Positions 2,525-59,340 of a stretch of 64,000 nt of DNA are shown here, one piece after another. The notes beneath the pieces are model-generated. The model was not told the origin of the DNA and made no database searches. It saw only the letters and a program-made list of their open reading frames with translations. Position 1 is the stretch's first letter, and every line of letters starts with the position of its first letter. The stretch is from a virus (lineage: Duplodnaviria > Caudoviricetes), in IMG/VR virus record IMGVR_UViG_3300047509_000221, positions 1,949 through 65,948 of that record; one strand, written 5' to 3'. The position numbers and the translations under genes were made by a program.

Positions 2525-2893
2525 TTAGCTCCTGTTGGCCTCGGCGAGGCAGTCCTGGTTGTCGGGAGACAGCGGCCCATCGTACGTGGAGGCTGTCGAG
2601 CGAATCAGTGCCGCGACTGCCCGCTTGGCGGCCACGGTGTCGGCGCTCCTCATCTGCTCGCAGTAGCGGGCGAGGTCCCTGTTGATGCCCTGCTGATACT
2701 GGCGACTGGTGTCGTACACCTCCCTGCGGGTCTCCTCCTGGTACCGCGCCATCGGCCTCCCAGTCACGAGGCCAAACCAGCTGGTGGCTACCCCGAGTAT
2801 CAGCAACCCACCCAGCAGCAGGGCGCCACCGAGAGCCACCATAATGCAACCCTTAGACTGATCACTCACGGCCATGTCCTCCAGAAGTCCCAC
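2525..2893 (-). CDS. membrane-anchored hypothetical protein
   Basis: N-terminal hydrophobic helix; adjacent to the lipoprotein gene. Confidence 0.65.
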   Translation of the reverse strand: MGLLEDMAVSDQSKGCIMVALGGALLLGGLLILGVATSWFGLVTGRPMARYQEETRREVYDTSRQYQQGINRDLARYCEQMRSADTVAAKRAVAALIRSTASTYDGPLSPDNQDCLAEANRS

Positions 2894-3052
2894 GTCTCCA
2901 CACCGGTCCTGGCGTGGCGTCCGTGGAGATATATAGCGCTCGTCCCTCCCCGCTCAGCGGCAGCCTCGAGGGCATCCTGCTCTCGCAGGCAGTAGAGCGG
3001 GGGGAGGCCCGGCGTGTCCACCCTGTGGGTGGCGCGGTAGGGGCGCGGTGGG

Positions 3053-56283: not shown

Positions 56284-56568
56284 TCATCGCGCCCTCTCCC
56301 TCATCGGCGTCAGCGGAACCCAGCCGTCTCTCCAGCGGTAGTCCAGCCTGCCCTCGTACACGTCCCGCTGCTGCTCCTCGCTCATGTGGTCGCCGGGGCA
56401 GTCGTGCGGAAGAGTCCCCTCCGCGCCACCACAGCGCTCGCAGGCGTACAGGGTGCAGAGGTGACAGATGCCTGCAGCGCAGGACTCAGTGTCACCTGGA
56501 CACCGGACACGCTTGTGTCCGTGAAAGTGAAGGATGATGGCGGTCATCTCGATCTCCGACCCTAGCAT
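56284..56568 (-). CDS. Cys-rich hypothetical protein
   Basis: C..C...CERCGGAEGTLPHDCPG...LDY..GW. Confidence 0.6.
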   Translation of the reverse strand: MLGSEIEMTAIILHFHGHKRVRCPGDTESCAAGICHLCTLYACERCGGAEGTLPHDCPGDHMSEEQQRDVYEGRLDYRWRDGWVPLTPMRERAR

Positions 56569-56602
56569 ACCCGATGAAGACCCGGTGCGAAAGGGGGCCG
56601 TC

Positions 56603-57079
56603 TTAGGAGCCCTTGCGCAGGACGCGCTCAGCCACGGTCGGGGCCGTCTGGGGCGGGGCCTCCACGCGCTCTCTGGGCGTCGAGGCGAGGGTGGATATCG
56701 CCCCGAGAAGAGAGCGCTCGGCGTCCACCTGCCTCGTCGTCGACCCGCCGAGATTGTAGGACAGGTGCGTGAGCCTGCGACCCTGTCGCCTCGCCTTGCG
56801 GCCGATGCTGCGGCGGGCCTGCTCGCCTATTCTGGGCACTTCGGTAGACGTCATCTTGCGAATACCGAGGCCACGCACAGTCTCGAACCGCATCCCAGTC
56901 CGACGCTCAACGTGCCTCCGGGCCTGGATGAGGGAGTAGCTGCTGGCGTCTATGGGACACTTCGCGACGTCGGCCAGTAGGACGTAATCCGCGATGGCGT
57001 CCATTGACAACTCAGACAGCACCTGAGACAGGGCTGCTATCTCTCGCTGTCTGGTGGGGTTCTTCCTGAACTGGATCAT
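56603..57079 (-). CDS. putative winged-helix-like accessory protein of the RAMP/pentamer-array locus
   Basis: AGGAGAG RBS; basic protein; FETVRGLGIRK wing-like hairpin. Confidence 0.65.
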   Translation of the reverse strand: MIQFRKNPTRQREIAALSQVLSELSMDAIADYVLLADVAKCPIDASSYSLIQARRHVERRTGMRFETVRGLGIRKMTSTEVPRIGEQARRSIGRKARRQGRRLTHLSYNLGGSTTRQVDAERSLLGAISTLASTPRERVEAPPQTAPTVAERVLRKGS

Positions 57080-57097
57080 GATGGTCTCTCCTGATGT

Positions 57098-57167
57098 GCG
57101 TTGCGGTGTGGTGCGCGGTGCGGTACGGTGACGTGTGGCGCCGCGTCGCTACGCGAAGCGTAGCTTG
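57098..57167 (-). ncRNA. pentamer array D (14 units), putative guide RNA
   Basis: All 14 units start with G on + (gcgtt gcggt gtggt gcgcg gtgcg gtacg gtgac gtgtg gcgcc gcgtc gctac gcgaa gcgta gcttg). Confidence 0.7.
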
Positions 57168-57168
57168 C

Positions 57169-57720
57169 TCAATCCCACTTGAAATTGCTGACCTCGTATC
57201 TTCCGAAGTATCCCCCCCGCTCGGGACGGAAGCGTCCGACCCCGACGGCGAGCCCGGCATAGCGAACTGCCTCCTCGAACACGTCAGGAGTGATCTCGTC
57301 GGCCAGGACGTGGAACTGGACCACTCCGTCCCAGTCGTCGATGCGGGGGAAGGTGCGCCACACGCGCTTGCCGGAGCCGCGAACACCGTCGGCGTTGGCA
57401 TGAATGCGCTCGGGCTGAATTTCGTCCTCACTGGCAATTGGCACGTTCTTCGTGACAATGACGCCGCTCTCGAAGAACTTGGTGTAGGTGGACTTGCCCT
57501 TGCCGGGTATCTGACGCCCCAGCATCTTGGCGGCTCGGTCGACGCCCATCTTGAAGGCCATCGCAGGAACGACGACCATGCCATTCTCGATGTGGGCCTT
57601 CTGCCTCCAGGTGCGCTTCTCGTAGTCGTCGGGCGTCTCTCTGTTCAGCTTCTCGGCGCAGTGTGCGCGACTGGCACTGTACGGTGCCTGTCCGACAAAG
57701 GTAACGGTGCAAGTTCTCAT
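57169..57720 (-). CDS. stand-alone Cas7/RAMP-like protein
   Basis: N-terminal beta strand VTFVGQAP, VPAMAFK, and C-terminal Gly-rich loop AGLAVGVGRFRPERGGYFGRYEV typical of RAMPs. Confidence 0.7.
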   Translation of the reverse strand: MRTCTVTFVGQAPYSASRAHCAEKLNRETPDDYEKRTWRQKAHIENGMVVVPAMAFKMGVDRAAKMLGRQIPGKGKSTYTKFFESGVIVTKNVPIASEDEIQPERIHANADGVRGSGKRVWRTFPRIDDWDGVVQFHVLADEITPDVFEEAVRYAGLAVGVGRFRPERGGYFGRYEVSNFKWD

Positions 57721-57744
57721 GGCGGGTCTCCGGTTGGTTTATTG

Positions 57745-58170
57745 GCGTTGCATGGTAATGCCGAGTGTGGAGCAGCGAAGCCCTGCGTTGCGTGGAGGAG
57801 CGTAGCCTCTTGGTGCATGACAACGCGACACGTGGTGGGGCGCTGTGTTGCATCGCGCCGTGGTGCTCAGCGTTGCGATGTGGGGCAGATGGTGCGTCGC
57901 GGTGAGAGGCGCTGCGGGGCGAGGCCCTGCGTAGTGCGGCGTCGCGCAGCGCAGTGGAGTGTTGCGATGCTCTGCGATGCGCAGCAAAAAGTAGGAGGGG
58001 ACGAGGCTCTGCGTTGCGATGCCATGCGGGACACTGCGGGGCGGGGCTACGCGGGACGTCGCGCAGCGGTGCGGTGAGCAGGGCAGAATTGCGTTGCGGT
58101 GCTGCGTGCAGCGGTGCGCAGAGACGCGCAGCGCCGCTGGGCCAAGAGGCGAGTAGCGCAGCGAGGACTC
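57745..58170 (-). ncRNA. pentamer arrays A (57745-57889), B (57894-57988) and C (58001-58170); putative guide RNAs
   Basis: 82 units in 5-nt phase, consensus GCG-NN on + (NN-CGC on -); 76 of 82 begin with G. Confidence 0.8.
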
Positions 58171-58180
58171 CATCTCATTA

Positions 58181-58210
58181 CATCTAGGCTGAGTATGCAT
58201 GGTTCGTAAA
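58181..58210 (-). promoter_or_regulatory. predicted promoter for the array and RAMP gene
   Basis: TTTACG-N18-TAGATG, same family as the other phage promoters, about 10 nt before the first unit. Confidence 0.55.
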
Positions 58211-58214
58211 GTCT

Positions 58215-59108
58215 TCATCCCATGCTCTCGATCATCTCGGCCAGCAGCCGCTTGTCCTCTACCTCCTGCTCGACCATCACGTCCCAGGCCTCCTCGTCGC
58301 GGATGCGCATGACCGCGTCCCGAATGAGGTCCTGGATGACCTGTGGGTCCAGAGCGTCGAGCTCCCACGACTCCTCCCCGTACAGGTCCCTGTAGGACGC
58401 GAACCGGGAGTCATTCTCCTTGGCTGGGTTGGGCGGGGGAGAGTACTGCTCGATCTGGTCCATGTTGAGCGCTAGGCGGCTGACCATGACGGGGACGCCC
58501 GCGTACAGGCTCAGCTTCTCCGCGTTGCTCTCGGTCATGTGGATTCCGCTCGGGTCGTGGTCGCCGAGGTGGAAGACGATCGGGCGCTGGCCCCGCTGGA
58601 TGTAGTCCGCGAAGCGTCGCCCGGCGCGCCAGTGCTCGCTCGTGGAGTTGTAGCCCTTCTGGGCGTAGAAGTCCACCTCGAGCCGGTTGCATATCTGGCC
58701 GACCACGCCCTCGAGCGCCTGCTTCTCGACCCAGACCTCCGGCCGGAACGGCTGGTTGGCCCACTTGTCGATGCTGTACCCGGCGAGCGCGTCCCGGAGC
58801 ACCTGCGCCGGGCTCGTCTGGTGGTTCAGTCCCATCAGGTTGCGGCCCCGGTCCTCGATCGCCGTCCACGAGATCAGGCCGACGTTCCGGCCGGTGTTGA
58901 TCGCGCCCTGGATGCGGTCGTAGGTGGCCCCGGTGTTGGGCATCCACCCGCGCTGGACGAACTGGTAGTGAATCTGGCGAACGGTCAGGGTGAAGCCCTT
59001 CTGCTCGTACTCGCCGACGACGTGGTTGATGCGCCCGATGAGGTCGACGGTGACTGACCGGAGGTTCCGCTCCTCGTACGCGATGTAGAGGCCGGTGTCC
59101 TCAGTCAC
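58215..59108 (-). CDS. TOPRIM-domain protein (Topo VI-A/JetD-like)
   Basis: TVRQIHYQFV, EVWVEK, HLGDHDPSG, RLALN..QI, WELDAL. Confidence 0.75.
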   Translation of the reverse strand: MTEDTGLYIAYEERNLRSVTVDLIGRINHVVGEYEQKGFTLTVRQIHYQFVQRGWMPNTGATYDRIQGAINTGRNVGLISWTAIEDRGRNLMGLNHQTSPAQVLRDALAGYSIDKWANQPFRPEVWVEKQALEGVVGQICNRLEVDFYAQKGYNSTSEHWRAGRRFADYIQRGQRPIVFHLGDHDPSGIHMTESNAEKLSLYAGVPVMVSRLALNMDQIEQYSPPPNPAKENDSRFASYRDLYGEESWELDALDPQVIQDLIRDAVMRIRDEEAWDVMVEQEVEDKRLLAEMIESMG

Positions 59109-59340
59109 GACTCTCGGCCTCCTGCTTGCGGACAATCTGCCGGGCTCTCCGGCCCTTGACGTCCAGAAAGCGCTCGCGGCCCATCCGGGCCACGGTCAGC
59201 GGAAACTTTGTCTGCCCCAGCAGTCTCTCGGTGTGATCCTTCGGGCGCAGGGCCACCAGGATGACGCGGTCGCGGTGTCGGCAGACGCGGTACGTGCGTC
59301 CACGATCACGAACATAGGTGTTGGTGATTGGGCTAGTCAT
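59101..59340 (-). CDS. hypothetical protein
   Basis: Basic ORF downstream of predicted promoter TTTACA-N17-TACATG. Confidence 0.5.
   Translation of the reverse strand: MTSPITNTYVRDRGRTYRVCRHRDRVILVALRPKDHTERLLGQTKFPLTVARMGRERFLDVKGRRARQIVRKQEAESRD

Follow-up and report, generated by a model that had tools for sequence, protein, structure and literature searches.

Why would a phage without any JAB protease gene carry an array of short repeats whose variable letters spell the active site of such a protease? This question is raised by virus record IMGVR_UViG_3300047509_000221 (Duplodnaviria; Caudoviricetes), a 65,948-bp single contig of which bases 1949-65948 were analysed here (the window, 64,000 nucleotides; all coordinates are window positions). 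A preliminary description, made from the letters alone, had noticed that the variable dinucleotides of an 80-base segment (58091-58170) can be read as codon positions 1 and 2 of a JAB motif. It had proposed that the segment specifies a gapped target, in which the wobble base is skipped. We found genes that contain this gapped sequence, and all of them are bilC genes of bacterial BilABCD operons. The segment is probably a guide of a VIPR system, a phage-borne RNA-guided silencing system. Sequence comparison indicates that it would silence the Bil defence, an RNA-guided anti-defence function of the phage.

The + strand of 58091-58170 consists of 16 pentamers: GCGTT GCGGT GCTGC GTGCA GCGGT GCGCA GAGAC GCGCA GCGCC GCTGG GCCAA GAGGC GAGTA GCGCA GCGAG GACTC. 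Each unit is formed by a GCG-like triplet followed by two variable letters (NN). Used as codon positions 1 and 2, the 16 NN decode to [FL] V A [HQ] V [HQ] T [HQ] P G [KN] A [Y*] [HQ] [RS] S. The list of dinucleotides was exactly as first described. The phage itself has no JAB gene, as had also been noticed: the Prok-JAB family (PF14464) gave 0 matches across the whole record.

Gapped patterns with one free base between successive NN were tried in turn with 16 units, units 2-15 and units 3-15. With all 16 units, no exact match was obtained in IMG/VR, and no self-match was detected in the window within 3 mismatches. With units 3-15 (26 specified bases, 1-nt skip), one exact match was recovered in the metagenome collection, on a contig designated L035. 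The matched strand, CAG GTG GTG GCG CAG GTC CAC ACC CAT CCC GGC AAG GCG TAT CAC AGC GAC, translates as Q V V A Q V H T H P G K A Y H S D. The gene around it, read in the same frame, encodes a Prok-JAB/BilC protein of 173 amino acids with the stretch VVAQVHTHPGKAYHSD. On this contig, units 2-15 of guide 1, the guide carried by the segment, agree at 28/28 specified bases and all 16 units at 29/32.

Two other target DNAs were identified. The conjugative plasmid p_2 of Mesorhizobium huakuii 583 (L037) carries a 51%-identical BilC gene, found by tblastn with the BilC protein, on which units 2-15 agree in frame at 26/28 (VAQVHTHPGQAFHS). A search of 301 genomes of the order of Devosia riboflavina, at up to 3 mismatches, yielded one match, with a single mismatch (27/28, VAQVHTHPGQAYHS), in genome G475 (L038). 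Here too the codon frame is kept; the gene is a BilC gene, BilB adjoins it and BilD follows it. In all three targets the skipped base is the wobble position of the codon, as the gapped reading had proposed, and an RNA from the minus strand of the array is complementary to the coding strand, again as anticipated. The 16-unit spelling was retained only in part. Units 2-15 match, whereas the last NN (TC) pairs with none of the three and the first (TT) belongs to a putative tail motif, CGCAACGC. This pattern, a 1-nt skip placed at the wobble position with no self-target, appears to be target recognition of the VIPR type. Since the skipped base is the wobble position, the guide reads an amino-acid motif across bilC genes that are only ~51% identical overall. 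The matches agree with the proposed tolerance to synonymous change at a conserved motif of a defence gene.

The gapped search was accompanied by the shuffled-NN controls that had been suggested for it. Matches fell in codon phase within JAB genes, and none of 500 shuffles of the NN order reached the real score, the maxima being 20/28 on L035 and 21/28 on L037. When all 16 units were shuffled 200 times on L035, the maximum was 22/32, compared to 29/32 for the real order. On the same contig, the best score was 24/24 at skip 1, but at most 17, 18 and 18 of 24 at skips 0, 2 and 3, respectively. A reversed-pattern control gave 0 matches in 5 + 401 + 301 genomes. By our own arithmetic, an exact 26-base match is expected ~2e-16 times per position, or at most ~2e-3 times for 1e13 positions. 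The spelling of the motif is not apophenia: real genes with the gapped sequence exist, and they are JAB genes.

The identity of the target gene was established from several matches. The 173-amino-acid open reading frame (ORF) of L035 matched Prok-JAB PF14464 (E 5e-7, above the cut-off), and the BilC profile of PADLOC was matched with E-values of 8e-16 on L035, 1.5e-16 on L038 and 1.9e-14 on L037. The sole sequence match of the L035 protein in the Protein Data Bank (PDB) was BilC of Ensifer aridi (8tyx, E 8.9e-11), which aligned at the target motif. The zinc site of BilC as a JAB/JAMM metalloprotease, H-x-H...S-x-x-D, is present in the target. On L035, its neighbours are a BilB-like gene on one side and a BilD of the ThiF family (PADLOC, 1.4e-16) on the other, and BilB-like, BilC and BilD matches follow one another in this order in all three DNAs. 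The preceding gene (98-145 amino acids) has no hidden Markov model match, and bilA was assigned by position only. According to the accessible part of one report, the order bilA-B-C-D is constant, BilC pre-processes the ubiquitin-like protein in many systems and the regulators capH/capP are usually upstream (10.1101/2023.09.26.559546). Anti-phage activity of other Bil operons is published, as given in the available text (10.1101/2023.09.04.556158).

The preliminary description was therefore correct in naming a JAB target family, which PADLOC and 8tyx specify as BilC of BilABCD. CBASS Cap3, which it had listed together with Bil, was rejected: the best PADLOC matches were BilB, BilC and BilD, E1-E2 matches were only weak, and no cyclase was present among the scanned ORFs. 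Within BilC, the 14 target residues form the conserved core: over 112 full-length homologues their mean identity is 0.85, whereas the protein as a whole has 0.63, and among 160 windows they rank 8th. The exact 14 residues occurred in 5/120 among the BilC homologues listed. On the M. huakuii plasmid, which is of the conjugative MOBP/MPF_T type, the operon is annotated as a small ORF, a second ORF, an MPN protein and a ThiF E1, with an ImmA/IrrE and helix-turn-helix (HTH) pair divergent upstream. On L035, an ArdC-N/zincin (MPTase) anti-restriction gene and a resolvase were observed on the same contig (L035:5683-6438 and 133-855), which indicates that its Bil operon sits on a mobile element.

What kind of system could use such a guide? 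In VIPR (Viral Interference Programmable Repeat) systems, Vipr is a ~20-kDa ancestral RAMP protein, usually phage-borne and often accompanied by an accessory vap gene. The guide RNAs (vrRNAs) flank vipr; each has 9-16 pentamers (GGY + NN) and then a 3' tail. Pairing is between the NN and double-stranded DNA, one base being skipped between successive NN, usually the codon wobble. Targets lie on either strand, a protospacer-adjacent motif is unneeded, and the outcome is transcriptional silencing (10.64898/2026.04.26.720920). Cryo-electron microscopy, as described in the available part of a second preprint, shows that each repeat is occupied by one protomer and that purines are kept out of the pocket that receives triplet position 3 (10.64898/2026.04.26.720927).

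The array of the window displays the same organization. It comprises ~96 pentamer units (blocks A-D) on both sides of a 183-amino-acid gene. Upstream, the pentamers form three phase blocks (57745-57889, 57894-57988 and 58001-58170) within 494 bp that hold no convincing ORF between this gene and a 306-amino-acid gene, both on the minus strand. A fourth block (57098-57167) is found just downstream, and the 80 bases under study are the final 16 units of the third. Over 96 units, the triplet on the RNA strand (minus) is C in 71/96, G in 70/96 and C in 90/96, position 3 being a pyrimidine in 95/96. The entropy of the two NN columns is 1.97 and 1.99 bits. Since the position-3 pyrimidine falls on the minus strand, this is probably the RNA strand; it is also the vipr strand, as in phage SUSP1.

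A Fourier scan of period-5 power (60-nt windows) failed to single out the array, and a phased base count was used instead, a window being positive if G was present at no fewer than 17/20 positions spaced 5 nt apart. The count returned 46 windows over the genome (65,948 bp), every one starting within ~57050-58100, and zero windows at periods 4 and 7. Chance alone would by no means produce such an array. The tail motif CGCAACGC or CGCAACAC (CGCAAC[GA]C) closes six array segments, and the segments between tail motifs are 8-17 units long. The first NN (TT) of 58091-58170 was attributed to the tail because the motif recurs and because the equivalent end units are unpaired in a related locus (L019, see below). 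An irregular segment between tail motifs (57959-58010) holds CCCCTCCTACTTTTT on the RNA strand and interrupts the phase of 5 nt; a degenerate guide, a terminator or a site of processing are possible readings of it. Other readings of the array, as an origin of replication, as a TRAP-like platform for protein binding or as a region coding for pentapeptides, were dropped, the homologous loci and the VIPR preprints accounting for its anatomy.

The protein encoded between the arrays was modelled by AlphaFold2, with a predicted score in the local distance difference test (pLDDT) of 92.9 and a predicted template modelling score (pTM) of 0.86. Foldseek returned 136 matches at E <= 0.001. The top PDB matches were Cas7 proteins of type VII and type III CRISPR (E 1.1e-7, probability 1.00, TM-score ~0.55). 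The C-terminus forms a glycine-rich loop (G-loop), GVGRFRPERGGYFGRY, in which G156, G160, G162, R165, G170, G173 and R174 are invariant in 26 homologues. A profile of these homologues, compared by hhalign to the 195-amino-acid gene product of SUSP1, a phage with a two-gene locus and GGTNN arrays on the gene's strand, gave a probability of 96.9% and an E-value of 1.5e-10, over the C-terminal 78 columns only. On the evidence of the model, the protein is predicted to be a minimal RAMP of ~20 kDa with an RRM core, a thumb and a glycine-rich loop, as expected of a Vipr.

Relatives of this Vipr were detected in 25 IMG/VR contigs and in 5 bacterial genomes (a Rhizorhabdus metagenome-assembled genome, an alphaproteobacterial one, Devosia riboflavina, Allocoleopsis and Bryobacterales), at 37-77% identity. 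Period-5 arrays were present within 1.5 kb of vipr in 27/30 loci at the strict threshold, and two of the three array-negative loci (L005 and L020) have short arrays at a 10/12 threshold. Altogether, 88.1 kb near vipr contained 1535 positive windows, and 129.5 kb farther away contained 50. No period-5 arrays were present in four phage loci with the 306-amino-acid gene but no vipr. The fixed triplet varies among related loci (AAC, CTC, GAY, CGC), but its last base, read on the strand of the gene, is always a pyrimidine. Read in this way, the triplet was AAC in L024, CTC in L014 and L015, GAY in L025 and GAC in L029.

The skip rule was assayed in this clade by sliding every 12-unit array stretch from all fetched loci (1025 distinct queries) over all fetched DNA. 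Ten matches of at least 21/24 were obtained at skip 1, and none at skips 0 and 2. On L035, guide 1 was the only one of the 1025 queries to reach at least 21/24, and did so only at skip 1. Elsewhere, a guide of L019 pairs at 23/24 with a gene of L022, and an L022 guide at 21/24 with its L019 counterpart, both with a 1-nt skip. Rival VIPR loci thus seem to target each other reciprocally. On the L022 target, the L019 guide leaves its final units (...ATCGC AACGC) unpaired, which marks them as the probable conserved tail. In these two viral contigs, each guide matches the other's copy of the gene just upstream of the array, self-matches being weaker (20/24). In L008, whose Vipr is 72% identical, a ~45-nt conserved spacer (AAGGATTTTGAGATGAC...GAGTTAACC) precedes each guide, and the guides end in repeated AACGC units. 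This arrangement suggests a separate promoter for each vrRNA, in contrast to the contiguous arrays of the window.

Altogether, the region 56603-58214 is assigned from sequence to a VIPR system, with a predicted Vipr RAMP protein, a candidate accessory gene and ~7 putative minus-strand vrRNAs. The features are collected in the table. The candidate accessory protein had no Pfam or PHROG match and no similarity to vap1 of SUSP1. Its homologues lie beside vipr in 10/30 related loci, whereas the flanking 306-amino-acid and DUF2786 genes accompany the vipr module in none of them. Its Atlas clusters are mostly viral, and a weak likeness to MarR-type winged helices (TM-score 0.46-0.48) is a lead only. 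Rfam at gathering thresholds gave 0 matches over the whole window. The virus record, obtained from soil, is 100% complete by CheckV and has linear ends. Neither a tyrosine integrase (PF00589) nor a serine recombinase (PF00239) was found in the complete record, and the phage may be non-integrating or virulent. From the absence of such recombinases, the guide system probably acts in lytic growth.

Table. Coordinates of the predicted VIPR locus in the window and of guides in related loci.
Feature	Position	Strand	Remarks
vipr (predicted)	57169-57720	minus	183-aa protein; PHROG 4652, function unknown
306-aa gene	58215-59135	minus	PHROG 6247
Candidate vap accessory gene	56603-57079	minus	158 aa
Putative vrRNA 1	58091-58170	minus	16 units; NN + CGC-like triplet on RNA strand; ends in tail motif
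bilC-matching part of vrRNA 1	58096-58165	minus	14 units (units 2-15)
Putative 3' tail motif CGCAACGC	58091-58098	minus	end of vrRNA 1
Putative vrRNA 2	58011-58090	minus	16 units
Further putative vrRNAs (blocks B and A, and irregular segment)	57745-58010	minus	bounded by tail motifs (57959, 57870, 57785) and one variant motif (57745)
Putative block D vrRNA	57098-57167	minus	14 units; terminates ACCGC AACGC; between vipr and next gene
L019 and L022 guides	L019:2849-3031; L022:6081-6282		targets L022:5951-5986 and L019:2600-2640
L008 guides	1380-1500; 2140-2260; 2820-2930		

How could this system act on a host? The anatomy of the locus, the fold, the homologies and the code match with its controls come from the present analysis. 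Filament assembly, gapped pairing, DNA binding and silencing are taken over by analogy from the VIPR preprints. The minus strand would be transcribed and cut into ~80-nt RNAs. According to the preprints, Vipr protomers would then polymerise on each vrRNA, one per pentamer, gripping the fixed triplet and exposing the NN, and the filament would bind a gapped double-stranded DNA target, leading to a block of transcription. The guide would pair with the bilC coding strand at the JAMM zinc-site motif (VAQVHTHPGKAYHS). A complex bound in the host bilC could block RNA polymerase, silencing bilC as well as bilD, the E1 gene downstream of it. Ubiquitin-like conjugation against the phage would then no longer be available to the host.

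Such a scheme has to be weighed against other uses of the same guide. VIPR guides may serve competition between mobile elements, in which case guide 1 would be aimed at a Bil-carrying conjugative plasmid or integrative element, and bilC would have been chosen for its invariant motif only. The natural targets published so far are satellites, prophages and other VIPR systems (10.64898/2026.04.26.720920; accessible part of 10.64898/2026.10.15.759431). Moreover, L019 and L022 target one another, L035 has the ArdC-N/MPTase gene and the resolvase, and L037 is a MOBP/MPF_T conjugative plasmid. All three targets are on or near mobile DNA, and the aim could be the element rather than the defence. However, the guide falls in the defence operon itself and in no replication, transfer or regulatory gene, and silencing of bilC and bilD is not obviously harmful to plasmid replication or transfer. 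A rival phage is not the target, because searches of IMG/VR and of GenBank phages returned no close relative of BilC. We therefore consider competition between elements an unlikely purpose of this guide. An RNA acting as antisense on bilC mRNA, rather than as a DNA binder, appears less probable still. Its complementarity to the coding strand in all three targets would suit this role, and the VIPR complex can pair with single-stranded RNA, according to the available text (10.64898/2026.04.26.720927). The same text describes filaments on RNA as mostly incomplete and the triplex as requiring DNA, and silencing is reported from either DNA strand (10.64898/2026.04.26.720920). Finally, the bilC match could be a coincidence or a relic, the segment being functionless. 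Only three matching DNAs were found, and three pattern lengths were tried before the first match. Yet the family was predicted beforehand, the match is in frame three independent times, no control approached it and the chance expectation given above is minute; we give very little credence to this explanation.

Several observations weigh against an anti-defence guide, and the rarity of its targets is one of them. Exact matches to units 2-15 were found neither in IMG/VR nor in one genome per GTDB species, and units 3-15 had none in IMG/VR. Within 3 mismatches, guide 1 matched nothing in 401 genomes of the class. The anti-defence theme also comes from a single guide. The other guides of the locus scored no better than shuffles on L035 and L037, guide 2 and the block B guide had no exact match in IMG/VR and, with up to 3 mismatches allowed, matched neither G475 nor the M. 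huakuii plasmid, and guide 2 had no match in 151 genomes of the order. A simple sigma-70 promoter scan found nothing in 56500-58400, and no CapH/CapP-like genes were seen on L035. Among the sequencing runs listed for 56600-58400 there was no RNA run; one DNA run contains this region and may be its source. The 1-nt-skip rule and silencing have been shown experimentally only for systems of the GGY type, not of the CGC type. Moreover, a block of transcription leaves existing Bil proteins in place and would be useful to a non-integrating phage only if the operon is infection-induced. The ImmA/IrrE-HTH pair next to the operon of M. huakuii makes infection-induced bil expression plausible, but on L035 no such regulator pair is evident.

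The remaining guides were also decoded. The NN of vrRNA 2 read I G L G G T G S [HQ] V V [HQ] [HQ], resembling the nucleotide loop of E1/ThiF proteins. At the protein level, at most 7/14 compatible residues were found for guide 2 on the 120 BilD and 120 BilC homologues listed, the same as for shuffles, and it did not match the BilD genes of the three operons targeted in bilC. The block B guide (57894-57958) reads S V [RS] L G [RS] L Y R S [HQ] [HQ] [DE]. No match to guide 1 within 3 mismatches was found in the 5 VIPR-bearing genomes.

How does the locus relate to known systems? Like the type II VIPR systems of phage SUSP1 and of a Pseudomonas fulva prophage (10.64898/2026.04.26.720920; available part of 10.64898/2026.04.26.720927), it is phage-borne and combines a ~20-kDa RAMP with a G-loop and a second small gene, here a candidate accessory gene. 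Its intergenic pentamer arrays, built of a pyrimidine-ended triplet and a hypervariable NN, are likewise on the vipr strand and on both sides of the gene, with a recurrent end motif as candidate 3' tail, a 1-nt skip at the wobble position and no self-target. The two differ in the triplet, which is CGC here and GGY there, and in the tail, a short CGCAACGC motif here and a ~40-nt pseudoknot there, compared by sequence only. Furthermore, the accessory protein is dissimilar to vap1 of SUSP1, and Vipr is alignable to the SUSP1 protein over the C-terminal 78 columns only. The matched target is a bacterial defence gene here, whereas it is a satellite, a prophage regulator or a rival VIPR there. Non-canonical VIPR arrays (GAC/NN, CAC/NN, WGT/NN, TGH/NN) have been reported, for which the accessible part of the preprint predicts no targets (10.64898/2026.10.21.760802). 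They share with our locus the period of 5, a non-GGY triplet and an adjoining Vipr-like fold, but CGC/NN is not named in that part of the preprint. The system is a member of the published VIPR kind with a non-canonical triplet.

Vibrio phage ICP1 encodes a CRISPR-Cas system directed at the PLE element of its host. Both are phage RNA-guided systems against a host-borne anti-phage element. ICP1 uses contiguous spacers and target destruction, whereas a gapped code and presumably transcriptional silencing are used here. With the Cas7 filaments of class 1 CRISPR (Csm3/Cmr4 of type III, Cas7 of type VII), the system shares the protein fold and, according to the preprints, one protomer per repeat and periodic base flipping. 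In contrast to them, the locus has no CRISPR repeat-spacer array or other cas genes, its period is 5 and not 6, and each unit skips one base of the target and three of the guide.

The target class, a host defence gene, is apparently a new element. As targets, the VIPR preprints give viruses, satellites, regulators of prophages and other VIPR systems (10.64898/2026.04.26.720920; accessible part of 10.64898/2026.10.15.759431). A term search of the main texts showed no mention of a guide against a host defence gene. Likewise, the matches listed in the literature on Bil and anti-defence, as far as their available text goes, include no RNA-guided countermeasure.

In the descriptions of 2026, VIPR is a weapon that phages, satellites and prophages use among themselves. 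A guide that matches only the active-site codons of a host anti-phage protein would extend its role to counter-defence. If this is true, Bil gains its first candidate phage countermeasure acting at the gene level. The locus also offers a natural demonstration of what a gapped code is good for, one 14-unit guide fitting bilC genes that share about half of their residues. We are evenly divided on a broader proposal, in which VIPR arrays would be programmable anti-defence arsenals. Guide 1 would then be the first natural RNA-guided silencer of an immune operon (Type II-like BilABCD). As it lies at the catalytic motif and skips the wobble base, neither synonymous nor most non-synonymous changes would allow escape, and it may pre-empt infection-induced transcription. 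If the principle is general, the NN of VIPR arrays, decoded into peptides, would give a direct read-out of the defence systems that a phage faces.

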